From the NCBI RefSeq assembly GCF_013167455.1, contig NZ_CP038328.1: a stretch of 64,000 nucleotides of DNA; one strand, given 5' to 3'. Source of the DNA: Escherichia coli O157:H7 (GTDB taxonomy: Bacteria > Pseudomonadota > Gammaproteobacteria > Enterobacterales > Enterobacteriaceae). The notes under the pieces were generated by a model. The model was given only the letters and a program-made list of their open reading frames with translations. It was not told the DNA's origin and ran no database searches. Of this stretch, positions 10,568 to 63,062 are shown piece after piece (positions within the stretch are counted from its first letter, which is position 1; each line of letters opens with the position of its first letter). The position numbers were made by a program, and so were the translations under genes.

Positions 10568-11803
10568 ATGTCTAAATTACCAACAGGTGTCGAGATTAGA
10601 GGTAGAAACATTCGCATCTGGTTCATGTTTCGAGGAAAACGATGTCGGGAAACATTAAAAGGCTGGGAGATTACAAACAGTAATATTAAAAAGGCCGGAA
10701 ATTTAAGAGCGCTGATAGTTCATGAAATAAACTCCGGTGAATTTGAGTATTTAAGACGTTTTCCCCAGTCCAGCACTGGGGCAAAAATGGTGACAACGAG
10801 AGTCATAAAAACGTTCGGGGAGCTTTGTGATATCTGGACAAAAATTAAAGAGACAGAGTTAACAACAAACACAATGAAGAAAACGAAATCACAATTAAAA
10901 ACACTCAGAATAATAATTTGTGAAAGTACCCCGATATCATATATTCGTTATAGCGATATCTTAAACTACCGGAATGAACTGCTGCATGGAGAAACGCTTT
11001 ACCTGGATAATCCAAGATCCAACAAAAAAGGAAGAACCGTGCGCACAGTTGATAACTATATCGCCCTGCTCTGTTCGCTGTTACGTTTTGCGTATCAGTC
11101 GGGATTTATATCAACCAAACCATTTGAAGGAGTAAAAAAATTACAGCGAAACAGAATAAAGCCTGACCCGTTATCTAAAACAGAATTCAATGCATTAATG
11201 GAAAGTGAAAAAGGACAGAGCCAAAACTTGTGGAAATTTGCCGTTTACTCCGGGCTTCGTCACGGGGAACTGGCAGCTCTGGCGTGGGAGGATGTGGATT
11301 TCGAGAAGGGAACTGTGAATGTCAGAAGAAACCTGACGATACTGGATATGTTCGGTCCCCCAAAAACAAATGCCGGGATCCGGACAGTAACATTACTGCA
11401 GCCTGCTCTTGAAGCACTGAAGGTGCAATACAAACTGACCGGGCATCATCGCAAAAGCGAAATCACCTTTTATCATCGGGAGTACGGCAGAACCGAAAAG
11501 CAAAAACTGCATTTTGTTTTCATGCCCAGGGTGTGTAACGGAAAACAGAAACCTTATTACTCGGTAAGCAGTTTGGGGGCAAGGTGGAATGCAGCAGTAA
11601 AACGTGCTGGTATTCGCCGCCGTAATCCGTACCATACGCGGCATACTTTTGCCTGCTGGCTGTTGACGGCAGGAGCGAACCCGGCATTTATAGCCAGCCA
11701 GATGGGGCATGAAACTGCGCAGATGGTGTATGAAATTTACGGTATGTGGATTGATGATATGAACGACGAACAGGTAGCCATGTTGAATGCGCGGCTATCG
11801 TAG
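10568..11803 (+). CDS. intR: tyrosine integrase
   Basis: 411 aa; C-terminal catalytic region with R...HxxR...Y pattern (HTRHTFA); adjacent to ttcA. Confidence 0.9.
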   Translation: MSKLPTGVEIRGRNIRIWFMFRGKRCRETLKGWEITNSNIKKAGNLRALIVHEINSGEFEYLRRFPQSSTGAKMVTTRVIKTFGELCDIWTKIKETELTTNTMKKTKSQLKTLRIIICESTPISYIRYSDILNYRNELLHGETLYLDNPRSNKKGRTVRTVDNYIALLCSLLRFAYQSGFISTKPFEGVKKLQRNRIKPDPLSKTEFNALMESEKGQSQNLWKFAVYSGLRHGELAALAWEDVDFEKGTVNVRRNLTILDMFGPPKTNAGIRTVTLLQPALEALKVQYKLTGHHRKSEITFYHREYGRTEKQKLHFVFMPRVCNGKQKPYYSVSSLGARWNAAVKRAGIRRRNPYHTRHTFACWLLTAGANPAFIASQMGHETAQMVYEIYGMWIDDMNDEQVAMLNARLS

Positions 11804-25157: not shown

Positions 25158-25351
25158 ACATTAAACAATTTGTGCCAGCTTGTTCACACTTTTATGTAAA
25201 GTTACCCTTAACAACTTAAGGGTTTTCAAATAGATAGACATATATTTACATCTAATATCGGAATTCTCTGCTGTTAAGGTTTGCTTAGACTTACTTGCTC
25301 CCTAAAAAGATGTTAAAATTGACAAATATCAATTACGGCTTGAGCAGACCT

Positions 25352-26104
25352 ATGATCCCGGAAAAGCGAATTATACGGCGCATTCAGTCTGGCGGTTGTG
25401 CTATCCATTGCCAGGATTGCAGCATCAGCCAGCTTTGCATCCCGTTCACACTCAACGAACATGAGCTTGATCAGCTTGATAATATCATTGAGCGGAAGAA
25501 GCCTATTCAGAAAGGCCAGACGCTGTTTAAGGCTGGTGATGAACTTAAATCGCTTTATGCCATCCGCTCCGGTACGATTAAAAGTTATACCATCACTGAG
25601 CAAGGCGACGAGCAAATCACTGGTTTCCATTTAGCAGGCGACCTGGTGGGATTTGACGCCATCGGCAGCGGCCATCACCCGAGCTTCGCGCAGGCGCTGG
25701 AAACCTCGATGGTATGTGAAATCCCGTTCGAAACGCTGGACGATTTGTCCGGTAAAATGCCGAATCTGCGTCAGCAGATGATGCGTCTGATGAGCGGTGA
25801 AATCAAAGGCGATCAGGACATGATCCTGCTGTTGTCAAAGAAAAATGCCGAGGAACGTCTGGCTGCATTCATCTACAACCTGTCCCGTCGTTTTGCCCAA
25901 CGCGGCTTCTCCCCTCGTGAATTCCGCCTGACGATGACTCGTGGCGATATCGGTAACTATCTGGGCCTGACGGTAGAAACCATCAGCCGTCTGCTGGGTC
26001 GCTTCCAGAAAAGCGGTATGCTGGCAGTCAAAGGTAAATACATCACCATCGAAAATAACGATGCGCTGGCCCAGCTTGCTGGTCATACGCGTAACGTTGC
26101 CTGA
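25352..26104 (+). CDS. fnr: FNR anaerobic global regulator
   Basis: 250 aa from [24 protein letters not shown]-terminal Cys cluster; CRP-family HTH. Confidence 0.95.
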
Positions 26105-26255
26105 TTTTTCCGCATAACTCACTATCCTTCTGTCATATCATTAAATTTTTCTGATTTATTGATCTGGCAGAAGGTTCATCACTGTTTCATTCACCAGATA
26201 TGGGTTAATCTTTTAATTACAAACTGCGTTGACAGTTGTTGTAAGGAGACCCTGT

Positions 26256-27206
26256 ATGGCTATGTATCAGAACATGCTCGTTGTTATCGATCCTAACCAG
26301 GACGACCAACCAGCATTGCGGCGAGCTGTTTATTTACATCAACGGATTGGTGGCAAAATTAAAGCCTTTTTGCCGATCTATGACTTCTCATACGAAATGA
26401 CCACCCTGCTCTCCCCGGACGAACGTACCGCTATGCGTCAGGGCGTCATCAGCCAGCGTACAGCCTGGATCCACGAGCAGGCAAAATATTATCTCAATGC
26501 TGGCGTTCCCATTGAAATTAAAGTGGTCTGGCATAACCGTCCTTTCGAAGCCATCATTCAGGAAGTGATCAGCGGCGGGCACGATTTGGTGCTAAAAATG
26601 GCGCACCAACATGACCGTCTGGAAGCGGTGATTTTTACGCCAACGGACTGGCACCTGTTACGCAAATGCCCAAGCCCGGTGTGGATGGTGAAAGACCAGC
26701 CGTGGCCGGAAGGAGGTAAGGCGCTGGTGGCGGTGAATCTCGCCAGTGAAGAGCCGTATCATAATGCGCTCAATGAAAAACTGGTCAAAGAGACGATCGA
26801 ACTGGCAGAACAAGTCAACCATACCGAAGTTCATCTGGTTGGCGCTTATCCGGTAACGCCAATTAATATCGCGATTGAACTGCCGGAATTTGATCCGAGC
26901 GTTTATAACGATGCCATTCGTGGGCAACATTTGCTGGCAATGAAAGCCCTGCGGCAGAAATTCGGCATTAATGAAAACATGACGCACGTAGAAAAAGGTC
27001 TGCCAGAAGAGGTGATTCCTGATTTGGCGGAGCACTTACAGGCGGGGATTGTGGTTCTGGGCACGGTAGGACGCACCGGTATTTCAGCAGCATTCCTCGG
27101 CAACACGGCGGAACAGGTGATTGATCATCTTCGCTGCGATCTGTTGGTCATTAAACCTGACCAGTATCAGACACCCGTTGAACTGGATGACGAAGAAGAC
27201 GATTAA
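26256..27206 (+). CDS. uspE: tandem universal stress protein UspE
   Basis: 316 aa from MAMYQNM; two Usp domains. Confidence 0.9.
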
Positions 27207-27227
27207 CGACTCCTCAATAACTGACAA

Positions 27228-27253
27228 GGCCCGAGTTATCGGGCCTATTTTTT
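27228..27253 (+). terminator. intrinsic terminator after uspE
   Basis: GGCCCGA-GTTA-TCGGGCC followed by TATTTTTT. Confidence 0.7.
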
Positions 27254-27255
27254 AC

Positions 27256-27513
27256 TTACTGCTCTTCGCCGCCAAGGAAATAAATTCCCAACGGGATTGC
27301 CAGCAACACAGTAAAGACCAGGCTATAAACAAAAATCATCGATGACTGAATCACATACATTGATGTCGTCCACTCCGACAGCGGAATATTGTACTGTTCT
27401 ATAACGCCGCCGATAGTCGCGCGAGTCACAACCGACGCCGCAATAATGAAAACCGCCAACAAACCAAAGAGAAATTTCTTCCCTTTCGCTGACTTCAGTT
27501 TCGCCATAATCAT
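27256..27513 (-). CDS. ynaJ: small inner-membrane protein
   Basis: 85 aa, two predicted TM segments. Confidence 0.8.
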   Translation of the reverse strand: MIMAKLKSAKGKKFLFGLLAVFIIAASVVTRATIGGVIEQYNIPLSEWTTSMYVIQSSMIFVYSLVFTVLLAIPLGIYFLGGEEQ

Positions 27514-27756
27514 GATGTAATCCTTGTGCAGACAAATTTCTTGTTACCTAAACGTAACAATACCATGACATTTCACCATTGTCTGCTCTGAAAACCTCAC
27601 CTCTTAGCTGGATTTACAATCAACGCATTGATTAGTTAGCTAATGTTGCTACTTCCTTCCCTGACTATTGATGATCTGAATGAATTGTCGCGGTAAAATA
27701 GCCCCGCCAGGGGTTTCCGGCATGACGACAATTATCTGGAGGAGCCTGATAAAACA

Positions 27757-28788
27757 ATGATCGCTGAACTGTTTACAAATAATGCGCTTAATCTGGTCAT
27801 TATTTTCGGTAGCTGCGCAGCATTGATTCTGATGAGCTTTTGGTTTCGCCGCGGAAATCGTAAAAGAAAAGGCTTTTTATTCCATGCGGTGCAATTTTTA
27901 ATCTACACCATAATTATCAGTGCTGTTGGTAGCATTATTAATTATGTTATAGAAAACTATAAACTCAAATTTATCACTCCAGGCGTTATCGATTTTATCT
28001 GTACGTCCCTGATTGCGGTTATTCTGACGATTAAGCTATTTTTGCTGATTAATCAGTTTGAAAAACAGCAGATTAAAAAGGGTCGCGATATCACCAGTGC
28101 GCGGATTATGTCGCGCATTATCAAAATCACCATTATTGTGGTGCTTGTTCTGCTTTATGGCGAACATTTCGGCATGAGCCTTTCTGGCTTGCTGACCTTT
28201 GGTGGTATTGGTGGTCTGGCTGTCGGTATGGCTGGCAAAGATATTCTGAGTAATTTCTTTTCCGGGATCATGCTCTATTTCGACCGTCCTTTCAGTATTG
28301 GCGACTGGATCCGTTCACCGGACAGAAATATCGAAGGTACAGTAGCGGAAATTGGCTGGCGAATTACCAAAATTACGACCTTTGATAATCGTCCATTGTA
28401 CGTACCGAACTCGCTGTTTTCATCGATCAGCGTAGAAAACCCAGGACGAATGACCAACCGCCGCATTACCACGACCATTGGTTTACGTTATGAGGATGCG
28501 GCAAAAGTGGGCGTTATCGTCGAAGCCGTACGTGAGATGCTGAAAAATCACCCGGCCATCGACCAGCGACAAACCTTACTGGTTTATTTCAACCAGTTTG
28601 CTGACTCGTCATTGAATATTATGGTTTATTGCTTTACCAAAACCACGGTATGGGCTGAGTGGCTTGCTGCACAGCAAGACGTTTATTTGAAGATTATCGA
28701 TATTGTACAGTCACACGGCGCGGACTTTGCCTTCCCCAGCCAGACGCTGTATATGGATAACATTACACCGCCGGAACAGGGTCGCTAA
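27757..28788 (+). CDS. ynaI: MscS-family mechanosensitive channel
   Basis: 343 aa; N-terminal TM helices plus MscS-like C-terminal domain. Confidence 0.9.
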
Positions 28789-51760: not shown

Positions 51761-51777
51761 GTGTAACCAGGTGAATC

Positions 51778-51936
51778 ATTTGATACCGACAAGGGTTTTA
51801 GTGAAAGGAGGTGAAATCACCTGTAAGATGCTGAAATAAAACAGGTGATGTATACTTCGGACGGAAAACTCTTTTTGATACCGACTGCTCAACAAATAGT
51901 CAAAAGATCAAAAAACGGCGACACATTTGATACTGC
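51778..51936 (+). repeat. candidate transposase end-binding sites (attL-type direct repeats)
   Basis: TTTGATACCGAC at 51778 and 51873, TTTGATACTGC at 51925. Confidence 0.5.
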
Positions 51937-52117
51937 TAATTTACCCTTAAAATCTTCTTCAAAACATCTTCAAACTGCCAAAATGCTCACATAATCGATC
52001 TAACTATAATCAGTATGATAATCATCATGAATTACTATTCAATAGCGTGATTATCTTGGGATGAGTCATATGATCTCTATATGTATTTACAGCACCACCT
52101 CATGATAGCGATGGCGC

Positions 52118-52729
52118 TTAACCAACAACATTTTTCTTTACTGTCACTGCCCCTGATTCCTGGGTGGCGTTATTGCTCGAGTTGTACTTCTCAATAACGC
52201 GCAAAATCTCTTTGTCTGTTTCTTCACTTCCCGCCATTCCTATCTTTATTGCATTTTTTAGTACGGGACGTAATGGCAAGGCATCAATGATGCTTTCTAC
52301 CGCATCCTGGCTGATTGTAGATGTATTCATTGCTGCCAGCCTGACAAGGTTGTTAGTACCTTCTCGCCTGATGAATGTAAGGATTAATTGCTTCTCTTGG
52401 GGGCTTAGAGAGCTAAGCGCCTGATCAATACCCGAACCTGAATCGCAATTGTTTTCGATTTTTCCGCATTCATCTTCGTTCTTGCCTGTGGCCAACCATT
52501 CGAGTGAACAATTACAGGCTTTAGCTATTAAGGCCAGTTTATCCAAAGGAGGGAAGTTTTTCCCCTTCCTGTAATTTCTTACTGTGGCTTCAGATAGTCC
52601 ACAAAGGGTCGCCAGTTCGACGTTTGTCATGTTTCCCATAGCCATAGCTAAGCGTTCTGAAAATCGGTTTATTCCTTCCATATCAATAAACCGTTCCGCA
52701 CTGGATACGGTTTTTTCTGCCTTATCCAT
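52118..52729 (-). CDS. prophage repressor (Mu c position), XRE-type HTH
   Basis: 203 aa; HTH VELATLCGLSEATVRNYRKG; AGGGGG SD; leftward at prophage left end. Confidence 0.8.
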   Translation of the reverse strand: MDKAEKTVSSAERFIDMEGINRFSERLAMAMGNMTNVELATLCGLSEATVRNYRKGKNFPPLDKLALIAKACNCSLEWLATGKNEDECGKIENNCDSGSGIDQALSSLSPQEKQLILTFIRREGTNNLVRLAAMNTSTISQDAVESIIDALPLRPVLKNAIKIGMAGSEETDKEILRVIEKYNSSNNATQESGAVTVKKNVVG

Positions 52730-52885
52730 ATAACCCCCTATAAAACAAAGAAATTATCAACATCGCATTTAATTTCGATGTGCTCGCAAAAAACCGTTGA
52801 TATCGAATTATTTTGCGATTATGATTTACCTAAATCGATAACCGGTTTTGATTATCGGTTCAGGTAAACATGAGAGGATCACACA
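52730..52885. promoter_or_regulatory. repressor/ner divergent operator-promoter region
   Basis: repeated GATTAT/CGATAA motifs and inverted repeat CGATAA-N10-TTATCG between divergent regulators. Confidence 0.45.
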
Positions 52886-53152
52886 ATGAGGGTATCCAGA
52901 CAAGCATCGAATAATTTGTTTGTTCGAGAGGGGTGTGACTGGTCTGCTAAAGCGGTATATGCAGCCCTTGAAAACAAAGGCACAGACCTCCCTGAACTGG
53001 AAAGGGAGTTAGGATTAAAAAGCGGATCAATGCGCAATGTGTTTTACCGCCAGTGCCGTAAATACGAAGCCGCCATCGCCGAAAAAATAGGGGTTGAACC
53101 TGCTGTAATCTGGCCCAGCAGATACCAGGTGGACGCCAGAGAAGTGGCTTGA
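52886..53152 (+). CDS. Ner-like DNA-binding protein
   Basis: 88 aa; C-terminal VIWPSRYQ matches the Mu Ner C-terminus as I recall it. Confidence 0.8.
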   Translation: MRVSRQASNNLFVREGCDWSAKAVYAALENKGTDLPELERELGLKSGSMRNVFYRQCRKYEAAIAEKIGVEPAVIWPSRYQVDAREVA

Positions 53153-53162
53153 TGGGGGATGT

Positions 53163-55253
53163 ATGTGGGTAACAGCAAAAGAATGTGTTGGTCTTCCTGA
53201 TTTACCAATGATGGAACATAACATTCGCCATCGACTCACAAAAGCAGCTGCGGGAAATGCAGCCATGTTACGCAAACGTAAGGGGACAAAAGCAATCGAA
53301 TTTAATATCGATTGTTTGCCTTCTGGCGCGCAACAAGTATTGCGTGAACGTTATGCCCTTCAACTGATGACGCAAAAAGCTGATGAATCACCGGCTCCGG
53401 TGGTGACAAAGGCCAGACGCTCGCCTGCCGTGGTTGATGCGGTGGAGGCATATCGCGGATCACCACAACTGATGGTTGAACGCCTTAATGCCCTGACTGA
53501 AAACCAGCGCCAGGTGGCTGATGCACGAATCGCGATCGTCAGCGAAGTGATGAAAGTCGCGCAACAACCCGGTTTCAGCTGTGCGAAAGCTATCCGGTTT
53601 ATCGTTGACAACCTGGCACGTTCGCAACTGGACGAGCGCATTGTGGCAATGGTTGAGACGGCGAACGCCAAAAAGGGAAACAGCCGTGCGTTGAGTGAAA
53701 TAACGCTGAAACGCTGGATTGCGGCCTTTAACAAGGCGCAGAACGCCGCTGAACGCCTGCTTTTACTGGCACCGGGTAAGCGCCAGGAAATAAAAGCCGA
53801 AGATATTAACTGGCTGCCCGAATTTCTGGCGCAGTATCGCCAGTCAAACGGCCGACCAATGACCGAGGCTTACGAGGATTTTGTCGCTGAATGGCAGCAC
53901 CGGCACGCTGATGAGCCTTATATGCTCGATATCATGCCGTCTTATGACACCATTCGCCGCGCAATGAAGAAACTGCCGGAAGTGGTGAAACAAAAAGGCC
54001 GGGTGACCGGCAGTGAATACCGCCAGCTTGAGGGATTCACGCGCCGCGACTGGTCCAGAATGCCGGTGAATTATGTCTGGATTGGTGACGGTCACGGCAT
54101 GAAGCTGAAATGCGCACACCCGGTTCACGGTCGGCCATTTGCACCGGAAGTGACCTTTGTTATCGACGGTGGCACGCGCTTTGTGGTGGGCTGGAGCCTT
54201 GACCTGGCTGAAAATGTTTTCGCCGTAGCCGGTGCCATACAGCACGGCATTCGCCATCACGGCAAACCGTTTCTGTATTACTCGGATAACGGCTCCGGGG
54301 AAACCGCCGACATCCTGGATAAGGAGGTTGTGGGGATACTGCCGCGACTGGGGATTAATCACCCGACCGGGATTGCCGGTAATCCGCAGGGACGAGGCAT
54401 TATCGAACGGCTTAACCGCACATTACCGATGCGCATAGCCCGTAAATACCGCACCTATTTCGGGAAAGGTGCAGATCGCGAGACGTTACGCAAAACCAAC
54501 CGCGATTTACGCTCGGCATTTACTGCCCTGCAACAGGGCAAACGGCTGAACGCCCGGCAGCAGTCAGCGATGCGTGATTTACCGTCCTGGTCTGAACTGA
54601 TTGATGCCATTCGTGACGGTGTTGAGTGGTACAACAACCGGCCGCACGATGAATTACCGGTGAAGCCGAACGGCAAGCATTACAGCCCGGCGGAGTTCAG
54701 AAAAAAACGCCTGGCGGAAGAGGACACGGAAATTGAATGGCTGTCCGATGTTGAGCTGCGGGATATGTTCCGGCCGATGGTGGAACGCCCTGTAAGACGC
54801 TGTGAAATACGCTGGCTGAATAATATTTACTACGCGCCCGAGCTGCGTGACGAGCATGGTCGTAAGGTGCTTATCAGCTATGACATTCATGATGCCGAAC
54901 GAATTACCGTACGTCGCCTGGATGGCAGCGTGATTTGCGAGGCGGTATGGGACGGTAATAAACGCGAAGCCTTCCCGGTTAGCGCGGAATACTACAAACA
55001 GCAGCAACGCCTTAAAGGCATGCGTAAACGCGCAGAGGAAAAAATCCGTGATGCCGAGGATGAGGTTGTCAACGTGCTGGAGCACAAGCCGCAGGAGCCC
55101 TGGCTGGAAAACATATACCGCCCTGTGGGTAATACGGTGACCGTTCAGCAACCGGTCGCTGACGATGAACCTGATGAAGAATACGAGCGTAATTTCCAGC
55201 GGGGATTGCAGTTGCTGGAAGCGAAATTAAAAGAAAATGACCCGCTGGCCTGA
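53163..55253 (+). CDS. MuA-like DDE transposase
   Basis: 696 aa; N-terminal W..KEC..LP..P like Mu A; candidate DDE residues in WIGDGHG, YYSDNGSG, IERLNRT. Confidence 0.9.
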   Translation: MWVTAKECVGLPDLPMMEHNIRHRLTKAAAGNAAMLRKRKGTKAIEFNIDCLPSGAQQVLRERYALQLMTQKADESPAPVVTKARRSPAVVDAVEAYRGSPQLMVERLNALTENQRQVADARIAIVSEVMKVAQQPGFSCAKAIRFIVDNLARSQLDERIVAMVETANAKKGNSRALSEITLKRWIAAFNKAQNAAERLLLLAPGKRQEIKAEDINWLPEFLAQYRQSNGRPMTEAYEDFVAEWQHRHADEPYMLDIMPSYDTIRRAMKKLPEVVKQKGRVTGSEYRQLEGFTRRDWSRMPVNYVWIGDGHGMKLKCAHPVHGRPFAPEVTFVIDGGTRFVVGWSLDLAENVFAVAGAIQHGIRHHGKPFLYYSDNGSGETADILDKEVVGILPRLGINHPTGIAGNPQGRGIIERLNRTLPMRIARKYRTYFGKGADRETLRKTNRDLRSAFTALQQGKRLNARQQSAMRDLPSWSELIDAIRDGVEWYNNRPHDELPVKPNGKHYSPAEFRKKRLAEEDTEIEWLSDVELRDMFRPMVERPVRRCEIRWLNNIYYAPELRDEHGRKVLISYDIHDAERITVRRLDGSVICEAVWDGNKREAFPVSAEYYKQQQRLKGMRKRAEEKIRDAEDEVVNVLEHKPQEPWLENIYRPVGNTVTVQQPVADDEPDEEYERNFQRGLQLLEAKLKENDPLA

Positions 55254-55324
55254 AATAAAAAAATAACCCGAGCGGCGACTCAGGTTATTTGATTAAACAA
55301 GGTATCAAATGAGAGGTTAATAAT

Positions 55325-56257
55325 ATGACTGATATTAACGATGTAATCAAGACCATTGATGAACTTATTGATGGCGGCGTACTGACGCAGTATGCCATCG
55401 CCAGAGAGGCGGGAATTTCCGACGGCACATTATCGGCTTTCCGTAAGGGAAAATATAAAGGCGATAACGCTGCTGTGGCTGCTTCCCTGCGTTCCTGGTA
55501 TGAGAACTGGAATAAACAAAGCGCACTGCCGGAACCGCCGCAGTTTGTGGAAACGCAGACAGTCCAGGAGCTGCGCGCACTGTTTCAGGCGGTTCGTCTG
55601 ATGGGCTGTATTAACGTTATTGTGGGCGTACCGGGTGTGGGTAAAACGGCCACTGCCCGTAATTACTGCCAGGAGCAACCAAACACCTGGATGATCACCC
55701 TGTCACCCGCGCACTCCAGCGTCACGGAGTGTCTGCTGGAGCTGGCCGATGCGCTGGGGATTGATTACACCCGCGCGAACAAAGGGGCATTATCCCGCGC
55801 CATCCGCCGTCGCCTGACGGGAACGCGTGGACTGGTTATTGTGGATGAGGCGGATCATCTTGGTATTGACGGTCTGGAGCAACTCCGGGCAATTCAGGAC
55901 GCCACGGGGATCGGGATGGTGCTTATTGGTAACCCGCGCGGATTGTTTAAAGGTGGACGCCGCACCTTTGATGATTTATCGCGCCTGTTCAGCCGTCTTG
56001 CCCGTACAAAACAACTTCGCAAGGCCAAAAAGGCGGATGTGCTGGCCATTGCCAGGGCGTGGGGGATCAGTGGTGAGGCCGAGCTGGCCGTCATGCAGGC
56101 TATCGCTGAAAAGCCGGGAGCGTTACGCGTTCTGACACATACGCTTAACCAGGCGTGGCTCACCGCCAGCGGTGAAGGCGCGGCGCTGACAGAAAAACAT
56201 ATTAATGCGGCCTTTAAAGAGGTTTATACCAACCCTGAATTACTCTCACAGGTGTGA
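55325..56257 (+). CDS. MuB-like AAA+ target DNA activator
   Basis: 310 aa; Walker A GVPGVGKT, Walker B VIVDEADHL; LPEPPQFVETQTV resembles Mu B. Confidence 0.9.
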   Translation: MTDINDVIKTIDELIDGGVLTQYAIAREAGISDGTLSAFRKGKYKGDNAAVAASLRSWYENWNKQSALPEPPQFVETQTVQELRALFQAVRLMGCINVIVGVPGVGKTATARNYCQEQPNTWMITLSPAHSSVTECLLELADALGIDYTRANKGALSRAIRRRLTGTRGLVIVDEADHLGIDGLEQLRAIQDATGIGMVLIGNPRGLFKGGRRTFDDLSRLFSRLARTKQLRKAKKADVLAIARAWGISGEAELAVMQAIAEKPGALRVLTHTLNQAWLTASGEGAALTEKHINAAFKEVYTNPELLSQV

Positions 56258-56481
56258 TTATGGCGGTATTTAATATTCCTGATATTTACGGACGCTTTTA
56301 CCTGGTTAATTTCGATAACGTGAAGGTGATTTCACTGGCCGAAAATAAAGAATGTGGCGATTTACTTTTTGAATTTAATGACCGCACACGAATGGTGATA
56401 TCTGCCGGACTTGATCGAGAAGGTGCGACAGACGTTTACAGCGGAATATGCCGTTCTGTTGGTGCGAAACAAGTCAGCTAA
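56254..56481 (+). CDS. hypothetical Mu-like early protein
   Basis: 75-aa ORF coupled to B stop. Confidence 0.5.
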   Translation: MIMAVFNIPDIYGRFYLVNFDNVKVISLAENKECGDLLFEFNDRTRMVISAGLDREGATDVYSGICRSVGAKQVS

Positions 56482-56748
56482 ATGAGGTGTTATATGAATA
56501 TGCAATCCTGCGGTAACAAAATGAATTTATTCGACTCCCTGAACAGCGCGCGCCGTCTGACCGAACTTGCCGGTGCGGTACTGGAACGCAGTAAGCGCTA
56601 TCCGCAACGTTTTGCACTGAAAACCACGCCGCCGGTAGGCAACGTGCAGGGAACCGGTGAAATTGAAATCACCATACAGACCAACGGCCTGCGCCGCCGT
56701 GTGAAGGCCACCCGCATCAGCGGCTGCACGGTTTACTGGGAGGTGTGA
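56482..56748 (+). CDS. hypothetical Mu-like early protein
   Basis: 88-aa ORF in tightly packed operon. Confidence 0.5.
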   Translation: MRCYMNMQSCGNKMNLFDSLNSARRLTELAGAVLERSKRYPQRFALKTTPPVGNVQGTGEIEITIQTNGLRRRVKATRISGCTVYWEV

Positions 56749-56749
56749 G

Positions 56750-57031
56750 GTGAAAAAAAATCTCATTGCATGGGCGTGGTCGAGTGGTCTTATTGAGTTT
56801 GGTTACGTCCTGCCGGAAGGTGCATTGCCGATAGTTGCCGGAAAGCCTGCCACGGTACGGCATGTGATTGAGGTTATGGCGCGTCATGGACGTGATGAAC
56901 AGGAGCAGTTACTGGTTCCGGGGATACCGGAAGCGGTGACGGAGGAAGAAGCCTTTAATGCCATGATTCGGTTCTGCCGTGAGGTCAGACGCCGGGTCAG
57001 TTATCCAAACAGAACGAGGACCAGAGGATGA
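56750..57031 (+). CDS. hypothetical Mu-like early protein
   Basis: 93-aa ORF. Confidence 0.5.
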   Translation: MKKNLIAWAWSSGLIEFGYVLPEGALPIVAGKPATVRHVIEVMARHGRDEQEQLLVPGIPEAVTEEEAFNAMIRFCREVRRRVSYPNRTRTRG

Positions 57032-57300
57032 GTAAAGTCGTACGCATTATTTTCGAATACAAGGAGCACGTTATCCATAAAAACGCTGATGGAACAGTGC
57101 GCATGGGGGTAAGTCTGGACATACGTTCAACCGGGATAAAGCAGAAAGGTGATGGACCCGCCATGATTTTTGGGGTGGTTATGCTCGCGGAAAGCAGAGA
57201 CTTTGCTGAACTTGTGGCAATGAAAGCCAGTGCGCTCATGAAAGATATGAGCATGCGTTCCGGGGTTATTAAAGGTAATGAATTTAATCAGCAGGGGTAA
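57028..57300 (+). CDS. hypothetical Mu-like early protein (paralog pair, copy 1)
   Basis: 90 aa, begins MSKVVRIIFEYKEHV. Confidence 0.5.
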   Translation: MSKVVRIIFEYKEHVIHKNADGTVRMGVSLDIRSTGIKQKGDGPAMIFGVVMLAESRDFAELVAMKASALMKDMSMRSGVIKGNEFNQQG

Positions 57301-57304
57301 TTCC

Positions 57305-57598
57305 ATGAGCAAAGTACGCGTTATTTTTGAATTTAAGCATGTTTCGCATGACGAAAAACCGGCAGGCAATGACTGTGTTGAAGTGCATGAAAAGATTGGT
57401 GTGGATGTAAAAACAGAACGTGATACGAATAACAGGCCGACGTCACTCTGTGACGTTTATGCAAGTATTCTCCAGTATCACAGTCCTGAAATTATTCAGT
57501 TTCTCTCAGCGGAATTTCAGGCATCTGTACAGGCTTTTGGGGCGGATGCCATCATTAAACGCCACCGCGTGCATAAAGCATCAGGCACACTGCAATAA
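57305..57598 (+). CDS. hypothetical Mu-like early protein (paralog pair, copy 2)
   Basis: 97 aa, begins MSKVRVIFEFKHV. Confidence 0.5.
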   Translation: MSKVRVIFEFKHVSHDEKPAGNDCVEVHEKIGVDVKTERDTNNRPTSLCDVYASILQYHSPEIIQFLSAEFQASVQAFGADAIIKRHRVHKASGTLQ

Positions 57599-57609
57599 GG
57601 AAAAACAAA

Positions 57610-58140
57610 ATGGCAAAACGCGTTACAAAATTAAAGGCCGCAGCAGAGGCGGCACCGCAGACCCGTGAAGAGGTCAGCCGCGATATCCGCACCCTGGGCG
57701 ATATTCAGCGAGAGGCGCTGCGCCTGGAAACAGCGATGAATGATGAAGTGGCAGAAATCACCGCCCGTTATACGCCGCAGATTGAAAACCTTAAAAAAGA
57801 AATCAAAGTGCTTTTTAAGGGGATTCAGGACTGGTGCAAAACCAACCGTGATGAGCTGACGAACGGCGGCAAAACCAAAACTGCCAATCTGACCACCGGA
57901 ACGGTGTCATGGCGACTGGGGAATCCATCATGCAGCGTCAGTCGTGATGTGGAAGGTGTGATTGAAATGCTGCGCCGTATGGGCCTTGAGCGTTTTATCC
58001 GCACGAAAGAGGAAGTGAACAAGGAAGCGGTCCTGGCGGAGCCGGATGCGGTGAAAGGGATTGCCGGTATTAAGGTGAATAAAGGCGCTGAAAGTTTTTA
58101 TGTCGAGCCTTTTGAACAGGACGCCGGACTGAATAAATAA
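57610..58140 (+). CDS. gam: Gam-like host-nuclease inhibitor (DNA end-binding)
   Basis: 176 aa; extensive similarity to Mu Gam as recalled (RLETEMND...ANRDELTNGGK.KTANL.TG.VSWR). Confidence 0.9.
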   Translation: MAKRVTKLKAAAEAAPQTREEVSRDIRTLGDIQREALRLETAMNDEVAEITARYTPQIENLKKEIKVLFKGIQDWCKTNRDELTNGGKTKTANLTTGTVSWRLGNPSCSVSRDVEGVIEMLRRMGLERFIRTKEEVNKEAVLAEPDAVKGIAGIKVNKGAESFYVEPFEQDAGLNK

Positions 58141-58237
58141 CACCGCATTAATCAATTAAATATCACTTCGTTTTAATTATGGCGCTCGCGTCAGGGGACT
58201 GCCTGCGCCTGTAAACTGAAAATAAGGAACAGGATAT

Positions 58238-58780
58238 ATGGCATATTTTTATTTCAAATTAGACCGTGTGCAGACAAATAAATATTTCACCAAATATCAA
58301 CAGACTGTTTTACCGCTACGCAACAGTATTCTTCGGGCATTACTGAAAAATACAGGCGCTGCCGGATTGCGCTTAAAGCCGTTTGCCATGGACGTAATCA
58401 GTGAGTTTTATTTTTCTGGTGCTCTGCCTGCGGGCTGGCGTAAGCGCGATGATGTGGCTTTTGTCGGGGACGGACCGTGCTTTATTGCCAGACCTGATGA
58501 GTCATGCCCTGAAGGACCGGCGATTGCCGCAATGATTGAAGCCGCTGAACGCGAGTTAAGAAAGCGTCCTGATTTCCTTGTCTGGCTCTGTGAAAAGCTG
58601 GGGGTAATGAGAATCCCCTCCATGTTTAACATGGACTCCTGGTGGACCCCGTCGCTCTCCCGTGATGCCCTGTGCGTGGTGTTTAAAGTAGGCGCTTATG
58701 GCAGGGAAATAAAAGGGGGTATTCCTGAAGAATGCCAGGAGATTAAACATTCTGAATATGTGGCGCTGACGGAGGAATAA
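58238..58780 (+). CDS. hypothetical Mu-like early protein
   Basis: 180-aa ORF. Confidence 0.55.
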   Translation: MAYFYFKLDRVQTNKYFTKYQQTVLPLRNSILRALLKNTGAAGLRLKPFAMDVISEFYFSGALPAGWRKRDDVAFVGDGPCFIARPDESCPEGPAIAAMIEAAERELRKRPDFLVWLCEKLGVMRIPSMFNMDSWWTPSLSRDALCVVFKVGAYGREIKGGIPEECQEIKHSEYVALTEE

Positions 58781-58783
58781 TTC

Positions 58784-59317
58784 ATGATTGATGCAAAAGT
58801 GCTTGAAGGGGTTAAAAACTGGCTGAGTATTTACGGGCGTCTGACCTGCGGCATTCTGGCTGAAAAAATGAATATGCCGCCATCCTCGATGGTTTATTTT
58901 CTGCGTGATGCGGTCGATGCCGGGGTGCTGACGGAATGTAACGGTTTTTATGATATTCCGCGTCCCCGCCCGGTGCAGCCGGTTCGTCGCAAATGCAGCC
59001 AGGAAGGTGCGGCTGATGATGTTCAGTGGTGCAGCTTCAGAAAATCCCTGCCGTGGATTGAGGGGCATGATATTCCGTCAATGGCGTGGGAATTTGCTCA
59101 GGGCGTTCTGACCTGTGAAACCGTTTATGTGGTGGCTGAAGTTGATGAGCAGGCCATGAAAGAAGGCGTGCCCCAGTTTGTGATGGCGTATATCGACATA
59201 CGCCTGGGTGTCATTATCTGCGGTTTAAGCGGCTGGAATATCACCTCGCGCGTTCTGCGTTACCTGATTGTTGACCGGACGGCCGCGCCTGCTGGGATAT
59301 CTGCGGAGGTGGCGTAA
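58784..59317 (+). CDS. hypothetical Mu-like early protein
   Basis: 177-aa ORF. Confidence 0.55.
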   Translation: MIDAKVLEGVKNWLSIYGRLTCGILAEKMNMPPSSMVYFLRDAVDAGVLTECNGFYDIPRPRPVQPVRRKCSQEGAADDVQWCSFRKSLPWIEGHDIPSMAWEFAQGVLTCETVYVVAEVDEQAMKEGVPQFVMAYIDIRLGVIICGLSGWNITSRVLRYLIVDRTAAPAGISAEVA

Positions 59318-59832
59318 TGTTCTTTAAAACATCAAACCCTTCCGCGCTGGCCGCGTGGCAAAAATATCAGCAGGACTGCCAGAAAGTTAAGGATGAGGCA
59401 AAACGCCTTGAGGCCGTGCTGAATGTTGCGTGCCGGTCGGTATTTGTATCCGGTATCAGTGGCTTTTGTTTTAAAGGGCTGCGCTTTATGGATGACAAAT
59501 ATCCTTTTCATCGCGACTTATGGCGAAAACCGACTGCGTCGAATGGCTGGAGCTGCACACCGCGCACATCACGTATTCCCAAAGCCCTGCGCGTTGCCTC
59601 TGACGAACTTAACAGTCTGTGGCGTGAATATTCGCCCGTCACGTATGCCAGAACCGATGCACTGTTGTTCTGGCTGGGTATTGATTTCTCGGCAATCATG
59701 TTTGGCCCTGTGAAGTGGTTCTGCGTTGACGATGTGATTTACCTTGAGTGCGGCGTAAAACCCGCAAATCAGAAAATGACCGAAATTCTGTCTGATGAGT
59801 TTTATGCTGCTGAAAAGCGAGTCAGGGGGTGA
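59317..59832 (+). CDS. hypothetical Mu-like early protein
   Basis: 171-aa ORF, start overlaps upstream stop. Confidence 0.55.
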   Translation: MFFKTSNPSALAAWQKYQQDCQKVKDEAKRLEAVLNVACRSVFVSGISGFCFKGLRFMDDKYPFHRDLWRKPTASNGWSCTPRTSRIPKALRVASDELNSLWREYSPVTYARTDALLFWLGIDFSAIMFGPVKWFCVDDVIYLECGVKPANQKMTEILSDEFYAAEKRVRG

Positions 59833-59835
59833 TGT

Positions 59836-60387
59836 ATGATGATTTTACAACCCATGGGGCGAAAAGGTCAGGCACCTGCTCATGTCCGTGCGTGGACACC
59901 TGAAGAAGATGCGCTGCTGATTGCGCTTTATCCATCCACCCCGGTTAAGGATATTGCTGTCAGGGTAAAAAGAAGTTTCTGGGGTGTACATAACCGGATT
60001 GTTTTATTACGCGGTACTTACCCGGAGTTGCTCAAATGCAAACGTCCAAGATTTAAACATGATGAAGATAAATTTATCCGAAAAAATGCCAGAACGATGA
60101 CCGGTAAGCAAATAGGAGAATATCTGGGGCGAGACCGGGATTCTGTCCACAATCGGGCGCGATATATTGGCGTAAGCATGAAAAAATACGGAGAATTGCT
60201 GCCCTTCACCCGTATACCTGACGATGATGTTCATCTTATTCGTGAATTACGGGATGCTGAATCACCACGACGTCTTACCTTCCGGGAAATAGGCGAGAAA
60301 TTTGAATTATCCGAGAGTACGGTGAATTTTATTTATCACCATCGCCGGACTGCCGAGGACGCTGTATTACGGGAGTTAACGCCATGA
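59836..60387 (+). CDS. putative DNA-binding protein with three tandem HTH-like repeats
   Basis: 183 aa; three ~45-aa repeats each with an acidic patch then a T/S.x.EIG....R...V.NR-like helix pattern. Confidence 0.5.
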   Translation: MMILQPMGRKGQAPAHVRAWTPEEDALLIALYPSTPVKDIAVRVKRSFWGVHNRIVLLRGTYPELLKCKRPRFKHDEDKFIRKNARTMTGKQIGEYLGRDRDSVHNRARYIGVSMKKYGELLPFTRIPDDDVHLIRELRDAESPRRLTFREIGEKFELSESTVNFIYHHRRTAEDAVLRELTP

Positions 60388-60569
60388 TAAAGAGACTTGT
60401 ATTTTTCGCAATTTTCGTTCCGGTGTTGGGGGTTGGTTTTATATTTGCGATTACAGGAAACCTGTCCATGATGCCAGATATTTGGTTCTTTATCAGGATG
60501 TCGCTCTTCCTGTTTATTATGAATCTTCTTATCGACATATATATCCGTATTACTGGAAAACATAAATGA
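60384..60569 (+). CDS. small hydrophobic membrane protein
   Basis: 61 aa, two predicted TM segments. Confidence 0.5.
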   Translation: MIKRLVFFAIFVPVLGVGFIFAITGNLSMMPDIWFFIRMSLFLFIMNLLIDIYIRITGKHK

Positions 60570-60940
60570 GAAAAATCACGTCCTTGTCAGAGTTACAGGA
60601 GATGAATATGAGTATTGAATTAAGATCGTCTTATGAGTATCGCAAATTTCTTATCGCCGGAGGCATGAAACCGGAAGATGTGGAAAAAATCGTTTCTTTT
60701 ATGGATAAGGAATGTGATAAGCGGGATGTGTCAGAAATTATTATGGATGACATGATTCTGGATTCAGTCGTGGCGTTAAGTCCGTTATGGATTGTGCATT
60801 CTCTTGCGGAAATTGCCAAAGGCACCGATAAACAGGCAGCTGTTGCTGCCCTTCAGACGCTTAATGAAATGCGTATATCTCCACGCCCGACATTAATACA
60901 GATGATTTTGTCCAGTATGGAGGATAAAGCAAATGAATAG
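60566..60940 (+). CDS. hypothetical protein
   Basis: 124-aa ORF coupled to neighbours. Confidence 0.5.
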   Translation: MRKITSLSELQEMNMSIELRSSYEYRKFLIAGGMKPEDVEKIVSFMDKECDKRDVSEIIMDDMILDSVVALSPLWIVHSLAEIAKGTDKQAAVAALQTLNEMRISPRPTLIQMILSSMEDKANE

Positions 60941-61130
60941 TCTACCCGCTGGATGGGCGCGCCCTCTGATGGCTAAGAAGCATCATTTTTTTAAAACTGG
61001 CGATAATATCAGTATATGTAGGCGGTGGTTATATCTGGCTCATAATCGCGAGCCGGATACATTTGAAAGCCCTGATGACTGTGCCGAATGTCGCAGAAGA
61101 CTGAATAAGGAGAAAGATAATGGACAGTAG
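60933..61130 (+). CDS. hypothetical small Cys-containing protein
   Basis: 65 aa with ICRRW...DDCAECRRR. Confidence 0.4.
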   Translation: MNSLPAGWARPLMAKKHHFFKTGDNISICRRWLYLAHNREPDTFESPDDCAECRRRLNKEKDNGQ

Positions 61131-61416
61131 TTCGCAGTTGTTCTGGTGTTTATATATCACATCGTTTTTCGGTGCATTCGTCATTACACGATGGCTGTGC
61201 CGGAAAGTTATCAGTATTTTTCATAAAAAATACCTGATTGGGCTGGCGGCGACTTCTCTGATTAATGCACTTGCCAGATATCATAAGGGGGAATACTACT
61301 CAAGAATAAAAACTGATGATGGTTTTAATATTTTTGTGATTCCTCCGGAGTATCGGGTTCAGCTCGATCGGGAAAGTAATATCTATCATATCAGCAGGAG
61401 TGTTGATACAGCATGA
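61120..61416 (+). CDS. hypothetical protein with N-terminal TM segment
   Basis: 98-aa ORF. Confidence 0.45.
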   Translation: MDSSSQLFWCLYITSFFGAFVITRWLCRKVISIFHKKYLIGLAATSLINALARYHKGEYYSRIKTDDGFNIFVIPPEYRVQLDRESNIYHISRSVDTA

Positions 61417-61922
61417 GAGGGAAACTGATATCCGCTATTCATGTGGCAAAGCGCGAGCTTGCCCTAGATGATGAGACCTACACATTCGTACTACTGGCAG
61501 CCACCGGCAAAACCAGCTGCCGGGATATGTCACCCGGTGAGTTATCCCGCGTGCTGGATGTTTTCAAAAAACGCGGTTTTAAAGTGCGTCAGAAACCGGT
61601 TAACCGGGCCTTAAAACCGGGTACGGTGACCGCCAAAATTCGCGCCATCTGGAAAGTGATGCACCGGCAGGGCTTTATCTCTGATGGTGCGGAAACCGCT
61701 CTTAACCGCTGGGTGAAATCGCAGACGGCCGCGCAGAACGGCGGCGAAGGTGTGGCAAACTGGCAGTGGCTGGAGCAACACCCCGCCCTGGCCTCAGATG
61801 TGCTGGAGCGTCTCAAGCGATGGCACCGCCGCAAAATGCTGGCCGCGATGGGAATGCCCGAACGCACGCTGATGGGGTATGACGCCGTTTGCAGGCAGTA
61901 TGAAAAATCACTTCCCCGTTAA
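61413..61922 (+). CDS. GemA (Mu gp16)-like regulatory protein
   Basis: 169 aa; N-terminal ISAIHVAKRELALDDETY pattern typical of Mu-like gp16 as recalled. Confidence 0.75.
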   Translation: MRGKLISAIHVAKRELALDDETYTFVLLAATGKTSCRDMSPGELSRVLDVFKKRGFKVRQKPVNRALKPGTVTAKIRAIWKVMHRQGFISDGAETALNRWVKSQTAAQNGGEGVANWQWLEQHPALASDVLERLKRWHRRKMLAAMGMPERTLMGYDAVCRQYEKSLPR

Positions 61923-61991
61923 CCCCAAATCCCGCCACAACGCGGGATTTTTATTTTAAACTTACCGGGAACGCGAGAACCGGAGGCTGAT

Positions 61992-62417
61992 ATGGCAGAA
62001 ACTCAGATGAGCATGTTTGGTGGTGACAGTGAGCAACTGCACGCCCTTATCGACCGCCTTGATGACATCCCTGATGATGTTCTCAAAAAGAACTGGCCGC
62101 GGACCCTGTCAGAACTGGTTGAAGTCACCGGCGCAGAACTTCAGCGTCAGGGGATTGAGCCGGTACTGGCCGGTAAACTGGCACGCAAGGTGGCTGCGGC
62201 TCAGGCAGCCTATATGGGCGGACGGGGTTATTACCTGCCGGTCGGGGAATCTCTCTTTGCCGAGCTGCGAAACAATGAGATATTTTCGCGCTGGGACCGG
62301 GGCGAGAAAATTGAATCCCTTCGCCGCCATTACCGGATGTCAGAAACCCAGATTTATACCGTCATACGCGAACAGCGCCGTCTGCATCTGGCAAGAACGC
62401 AACCGCCACTTTTCTGA
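61992..62417 (+). CDS. Mor-like middle-operon transcriptional activator
   Basis: 141 aa; position after gemA; C-terminal HTH-like SETQIYTVIREQRR. Confidence 0.75.
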   Translation: MAETQMSMFGGDSEQLHALIDRLDDIPDDVLKKNWPRTLSELVEVTGAELQRQGIEPVLAGKLARKVAAAQAAYMGGRGYYLPVGESLFAELRNNEIFSRWDRGEKIESLRRHYRMSETQIYTVIREQRRLHLARTQPPLF

Positions 62418-62488
62418 TATTCCGCAAAGCCTGCCGCCTCTCCTTCACCGTTACGCTGACTCAGAGAACATCATGAGACAGCGTAACA

Positions 62489-62989
62489 ATGCCAAAACTC
62501 CCCGCACCACTGCGTAAAAAGCTGATTGCCCTTGTTCTGGCCGGTGCCGGGACGTTCACGATTGCCACGCATTACACCGGTTACTGGGAAGGGAAAGAAA
62601 ACTCCACGTATATCGATCCCACCGGTACACCCACCATCTGTTACGGCCATACCGGCCCGGATGTGAAACCGGGTATGACCCTGACAGATGAAGAATGCCT
62701 GGAACTACTGGAAAAGGACATGAAATGGGCCTTTGCGGCCATTGATCGGCGTGTTCAGGTGCCGCTTACCCGTGGTCAGACGGTGGCGCTGGCTTCGTGG
62801 ATCTTCTGGGCCGGTGAAACGAACTTTCGCAACTCCACGCTTCTGCGCCTGATCAATGCCGGGCAGATGCCCGCGTCCTGTAAGCAGTATATCCGCTGGA
62901 TTTATTCAAAGGGGGTGAAACTCCCCGGCCTTGAGGCCCGCCGTTCGGCGGATGAATGGTTATGTCGCTACGACTTGCCGAAAGTCTGA
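62489..62989 (+). CDS. endolysin, T4-lysozyme-like (GH24) with N-terminal SAR-type signal anchor
   Basis: 166 aa; Gly/Ala-rich TM LIALVLAGAGTFTIATHY; catalytic-type motif WEGKENSTYIDPTGTPTICYGHTG. Confidence 0.85.
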   Translation: MPKLPAPLRKKLIALVLAGAGTFTIATHYTGYWEGKENSTYIDPTGTPTICYGHTGPDVKPGMTLTDEECLELLEKDMKWAFAAIDRRVQVPLTRGQTVALASWIFWAGETNFRNSTLLRLINAGQMPASCKQYIRWIYSKGVKLPGLEARRSADEWLCRYDLPKV

Positions 62990-63062
62990 ACCGCTTCTGG
63001 CGACCGCTCATGATAGCGCTGCTGTGTGCGGTACTGCTGTTACGGGGTGTCCTGTGGCTGCG

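Follow-up and report, generated by a model that had tools for sequence, protein, structure and literature searches.

The 64-kb stretch of DNA analysed here (hereafter the window) carries the precise empty-site allele of the locus that is occupied by IS5F in Escherichia coli K-12. The divergent genes ynaJ and ynaI are separated in the window by an uninterrupted spacer, and the tetranucleotide that flanks the element on both sides in K-12 is found there only once. The relationship between the empty and the filled site is exact, and the distribution of the two states among complete E. coli genomes is established. We consider it very probable (around 0.95) that the window has kept the ancestral, never-occupied spacer and that the IS5 insertion of K-12 is derived and specific to that lineage, the O157:H7-like strain of the window being without the event.

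The ynaJ-ynaI spacer and its counterpart in K-12

The gene on the left of the spacer, ynaJ (27256..27513, minus strand), was taken from the list of open reading frames and encodes a protein of 85 amino acids matching the Pfam family DUF2534 of small membrane proteins (E=4.5e-41). The same locus is named ynaJ in the annotation of identical O157:H7 genomes. On the right, ynaI (27757..28788, plus strand, 343 amino acids) encodes a low-conductance mechanosensitive channel of the MscS family according to the RefSeq annotation, and its product matches the Pfam families MS_channel_1st, MS_channel_2nd, and MS_channel_3rd. The intergenic region between them (27514..27756) has a G+C content of 41.6%, and the length of 243 bp given in the first-pass annotation is exact when computed from the sequence and the list of open reading frames. 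An O157:H7 genome with 100% identity is annotated in RefSeq with the same gene pair and the same 243-bp gap, in the gene order ogt, fnr, uspE, ynaJ, ynaI, mppA, and pgrR. Going by position, both divergent genes have this spacer as their upstream region.

A scan for consensus sigma-70 promoters between 27150 and 27900 revealed no sites, for 1.6 expected by chance. Rfam covariance models, searched between 27100 and 27900 with a permissive E-value, gave no match inside 27514-27756. The two matches that were obtained lie outside the spacer, with E-values around 0.5 and scores far below the gathering score. Two small features of the spacer were nevertheless visible in the sequence. A perfect 7-bp inverted repeat, TTGTTAC-N6-GTAACAA (27541-27560), is located 28-47 nt upstream of the start codon of ynaJ and looks like a putative operator for a dimeric regulator. 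On the minus strand, a small G+C-rich hairpin at around 27705-27722 precedes a T run and resembles a terminator. It is located within the leader region of ynaI, about 35-50 nt upstream of the start of this gene, and could equally be a 5'-UTR hairpin on the plus strand.

IS5 elements are about 1.2 kb long, have 16-bp terminal inverted repeats, encode a DDE transposase, and duplicate a 4-bp YTAR target upon insertion. The first-pass annotation had placed an IS5 copy (insH) in this neighbourhood in K-12 MG1655, and the reference annotation bears this out. The sequence NC_000913.3 has an 'insertion sequence:IS5F' at 1396044..1397238 (1195 bp), between ynaI (b1330) and ynaJ (b1332), which contains insH4 (b1331), annotated as 'IS5 transposase and trans-activator'. 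In MG1655, the ends of IS5F are GGAAGGTGCGAACAAG... and ...CTTATTCGCACCTTCC, with CTAA on either side (TTAG in the orientation of the window). Hence, the K-12 element used for comparison has the features of an IS5 in its length of 1195 bp, its ends, its flanking CTAA/CTAA, and its insH4 annotation.

The alignment with K-12 that had been proposed as a check shows flanks that are colinear with the window and join at 27636-27639. When 8.5 kb of the K-12 locus were compared with the window using blastn, positions 1-4044 of K-12 matched 31678-27636 (98.5% identity) and positions 5240-8501 matched 27639-24378 (99.4% identity), the two blocks sharing exactly four bases of the window, 27636-27639. In the genome search with a 745-bp query, the two pieces of K-12 correspond to positions 1-384 and 381-745 of the query. 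The four shared bases read TTAG, or CTAA on the opposite strand. This tetranucleotide is the target that IS5F has duplicated in K-12 and is single in the window, where it lies 122 nt from the start codon of ynaJ and 117 nt from that of ynaI. The K-12 flanks stop at ...GATTAGTTAG and resume at TTAGCTAATG..., such that the arrangement in K-12 reads ...TTAG[IS5]TTAG... in the orientation of the window.

In K-12, ynaJ and ynaI are separated by 1442 bp and not by 243 bp, a distance made up of 121 bp on the side of ynaI, the 1195 bp of the element, and 126 bp on the side of ynaJ. Removing the IS5 and one copy of the 4-bp duplication from the K-12 sequence results in a 243-bp spacer with a single mismatch to the window, at 27578, where the window and O157:H7 have an A, and K-12 and strain FDAARGOS_943 (see below) have a G. 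The two loci thus share the flanking genes, flanks that are 98.5-99.4% identical over 7.3 kb, and the TTAG/CTAA tetranucleotide, whereas the 1195-bp IS5 and the second copy of the tetranucleotide are present in K-12 and lacking in the window. We searched the 64-kb window for IS5F with blastn and found no IS5, but only chance matches of 12-17 nt (E-values of at least 0.77). The terminal repeat of IS5, GGAAGGTGCGAAYAAG, has no match in the window even when allowing 3 mismatches, and no IS5 remnants (terminal inverted repeats or transposase fragments) were found at or near the site.

Distribution of the two states among complete genomes

We then surveyed 5426 complete genomes of E. coli. The spacer was regarded as uninterrupted when a single place covered at least 80% of the spacer query, and the K-12 state was identified by the exact junction between the ynaI flank and IS5, using a 160-bp query. 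Some match to the spacer was found in 5422 genomes. The spacer is uninterrupted in 5055 genomes, with 95-100% identity to the window, 355 have the K-12 junction, and around 12 are, by subtraction, in neither state. Since 5055 of the 5426 genomes share the arrangement of the window, its earlier description as the uninterrupted state is a fair one. The uninterrupted spacer is found across pathotypes, including O157:H7, O111, CFT073, UTI89, Nissle 1917, and ST131 strains. The spacers of O157:H7 PV15-279, CFT073, UTI89, and Nissle 1917 have the same 243 bp as the window with only point differences, and the identity to the window is 100% in O157:H7 genomes and 98.4-99.6% in the other lineages compared.

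The K-12 junction is found once per genome in the 355 carriers and is always chromosomal. Among the matches listed (around 115 of the 355 carriers), every strain is a laboratory derivative or a hybrid of K-12, with a genome of 4.2-4.8 Mb. They include MG1655, W3110, DH1, DH5alpha, BW25113, J53, C600/EC600, JM109, MC4100, HB101, XL1-Blue, Origami2, and O16:H48 isolates from the mouse gut. These names, inspected for around 115 of the 355 carriers, strongly indicate that the insertion is restricted to the K-12 lineage, and a rare natural isolate with the K-12 insertion may conceivably be present among the 355.

These data are most simply read as one insertion event, in the lineage of K-12, into a spacer that is otherwise conserved, and we infer that the direction of change was an insertion in K-12 and not an excision elsewhere. 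No observation of ours contradicts this reading. One copy of IS5 (IS5F/insH4, 1195 bp) would have transposed into the TTAG/CTAA in the middle of the spacer in the ancestry of K-12, duplicating 4 bp of target as is usual for IS5 at YTAR sites. The O157:H7-like strain of the window would never have had this insertion and would thus have kept the native 243-bp shared upstream region.

Other histories of the site and other mobile elements

The TTAG used by IS5F is part of a cluster of three abutting YTAR tetranucleotides, TTAG-TTAG-CTAA (27632..27643, local sequence GATTAGTTAGCTAATG), revealed by a scan for YTAR sites. The IS5 of K-12 took the middle one, and the first was taken by another element in FDAARGOS_943 (NZ_CP065615.1, 5.27 Mb), which is not a K-12 strain and is one of the approximately 12 genomes in neither state. 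This genome has a 916-bp element of the IS5 family between ynaJ and ynaI (4122-5037 of the extracted locus), with perfect 16-bp terminal repeats, GGCTGTGTCCCTTAAT, and a transposase with a programmed frameshift. Reconstruction of the empty site shows a 2-bp duplication, TA, which corresponds to 27633-27634 of the window. The element thus lies 2 bp away from the K-12 site, in the TTAG that adjoins it on the left. FDAARGOS_943 also lacks 10 bp that correspond to 27667-27676 of the window. It shares with the window the spacer and its cluster of YTAR targets, but there an element of the IS5 family parts ynaJ from ynaI, and the 916-bp element, the TA duplication, and the 10-bp deletion are its own and have no equivalent in the window.

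The insertion of two elements within 4 bp hints at a preferred landing pad. One may thus ask if TTAG-TTAG-CTAA is a recurrent hotspot for elements of the IS5 family, in which case the locus would change often and its emptiness in the window would be but one of its states. The presence of two different elements, the IS5 of K-12 and the 916-bp element of FDAARGOS_943, independently inserted in adjacent tetranucleotides is in line with this idea, as are the approximately 12 genomes with neither an intact spacer nor the K-12 junction. However, interruptions other than that of K-12 concern at most around 12 of the 5071 non-K-12 genomes (0.2%), which shows a locus that is overwhelmingly stable. Furthermore, YTAR sites are no more frequent over the whole spacer than in shuffled sequences (5 found for 5.2 expected), and only their local tandem arrangement is notable. 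We therefore regard a hotspot as possible but rather doubtful. It would be compatible with an ancestral empty site and is no replacement for that explanation.

In another history, an ancestor common to K-12 and the strain of the window had the IS5, which was then precisely excised in the lineage of the window. Such an event would leave a single TTAG and a sequence identical to that of a never-occupied site. Yet, the site is empty in 5055 of the 5426 genomes, which belong to very different lineages, and filled, among the carriers listed, only in K-12 derivatives. This would require many independent precise excisions, or a single insertion and the loss of the element from all other lineages, and precise excision of IS5 is rare, which makes this history very improbable. 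Insertion sequences are a classical cause of gaps and collapses in assemblies, but that IS5 is missing here by such an artefact, the repeat having been collapsed or skipped, is even harder to believe, because the 745 bp spanning the site are 100% identical in many independently finished O157:H7 genomes, because a collapse normally interrupts the contig or leaves an incomplete IS end, where the window has a clean single TTAG, and because Mu-like and Rac-like prophages were assembled without trouble in the same window.

These prophages are among the other differences in mobile elements that we observed. The window is O157:H7-like, in that many O157:H7 genomes match it with 100% identity both at the ynaJ-ynaI locus and at the intR-ttcA junction. 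Next to ttcA, positions 1 to around 11850 belong to a Rac-like lambdoid prophage, of which the window has the integrase-proximal part, including genes for a DnaC/IstB-like protein (1314..2060), Rha/Ash (4981..5829), a RecE/exoVIII-like protein (6348..9017), RecT (8953..9819), and an intR-like integrase (10568..11803). This differs from O157:H7 PV15-279, where ttcA is directly beside uspF and there is no Rac-like prophage at the site. We considered and rejected a split nifJ in the window, as Pfam shows that the open reading frames in question are RecE and RecT of the Rac-like prophage absent from the PV15-279 site.

A Mu-like transposable prophage starts at 51762 and continues past the end of the window (51762-64000). 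It encodes a CI-type repressor (52118..52729, minus strand), a MuA-like transposase (53163..55253), MuB (55325..56257), Gam (57610..58140), Mor (61992..62417), and a lysozyme-like open reading frame (62489..62989). Its TG... end at 51762 is inside ycjO, whose open reading frame is cut to 212 amino acids. None of the 5426 complete genomes has this junction between ycjO and the prophage. In other strains, the prophage end lies at many different positions of the chromosome, which is the pattern expected of a phage that transposes. Finally, ycjG of PV15-279 (25257-28672 of the extracted locus) is split by ISEc8, an element of the IS66 family, and the window has one uninterrupted open reading frame of 335 amino acids at the corresponding position (35328-36335). 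By position, this is another putative presence/absence difference of an insertion sequence among O157-like strains.

Significance for ynaI and ynaJ

The IS5 polymorphism and its consequences are already known, and the absence of the element in the window is a correct but ordinary strain difference. The ynaI/ynaJ intergenic copy is among the 11 IS5 copies of BW25113 in Table 1 of PMC11677980, and this study reports its deletion. Another work mentions 'the known IS5 element b1331 to the right of ynaI' and describes a W3110 stock where ynaJ, uspE, and fnr were deleted by recombination between this element and a second IS5 near ogt (PMC2072959). Sawers 2005 is cited in PMC3149613 for certain K-12 strains that have an IS5 upstream of fnr. 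In some MG1655/W3110 stocks, ynaJ-uspE-fnr is lost by recombination between two IS5 copies (PMC2072959). The strain of the window is without one of the partners, and a substrate for such a deletion would thus be lacking at this locus.

The insertion may also have an effect on the expression of ynaI or ynaJ. The ynaI mRNA was described as readily detectable in K-12 (Edwards et al. 2012, PMC3508906), in a study where IS5 is not mentioned in connection with the expression of this gene, and as low in PMC12314656. Since the mRNA is detected in K-12, IS5 neither silences ynaI nor abolishes its expression in this background. The difference is relevant when promoter data on YnaI from K-12 are transferred to other strains, since in K-12 the element breaks the upstream region 117 nt ahead of the start codon.

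The finding matters very little in general: among the 11 IS5 copies of K-12, this one is very probably a peculiarity of a laboratory lineage, and natural strains, that of the window included, keep the native spacer. It is a tentative suggestion, on which we would not insist, that 27632-27643 is a recurrent landing pad for the IS5 family and that the expression data for ynaI and ynaJ in K-12 then come from a chimeric upstream region. If this were true, the upstream region of K-12 would be derived from IS5 beyond -117 (ynaI) and -122 (ynaJ), and the data obtained in K-12 would be unlike the native regulation in the window and in 93% of the E. coli genomes.
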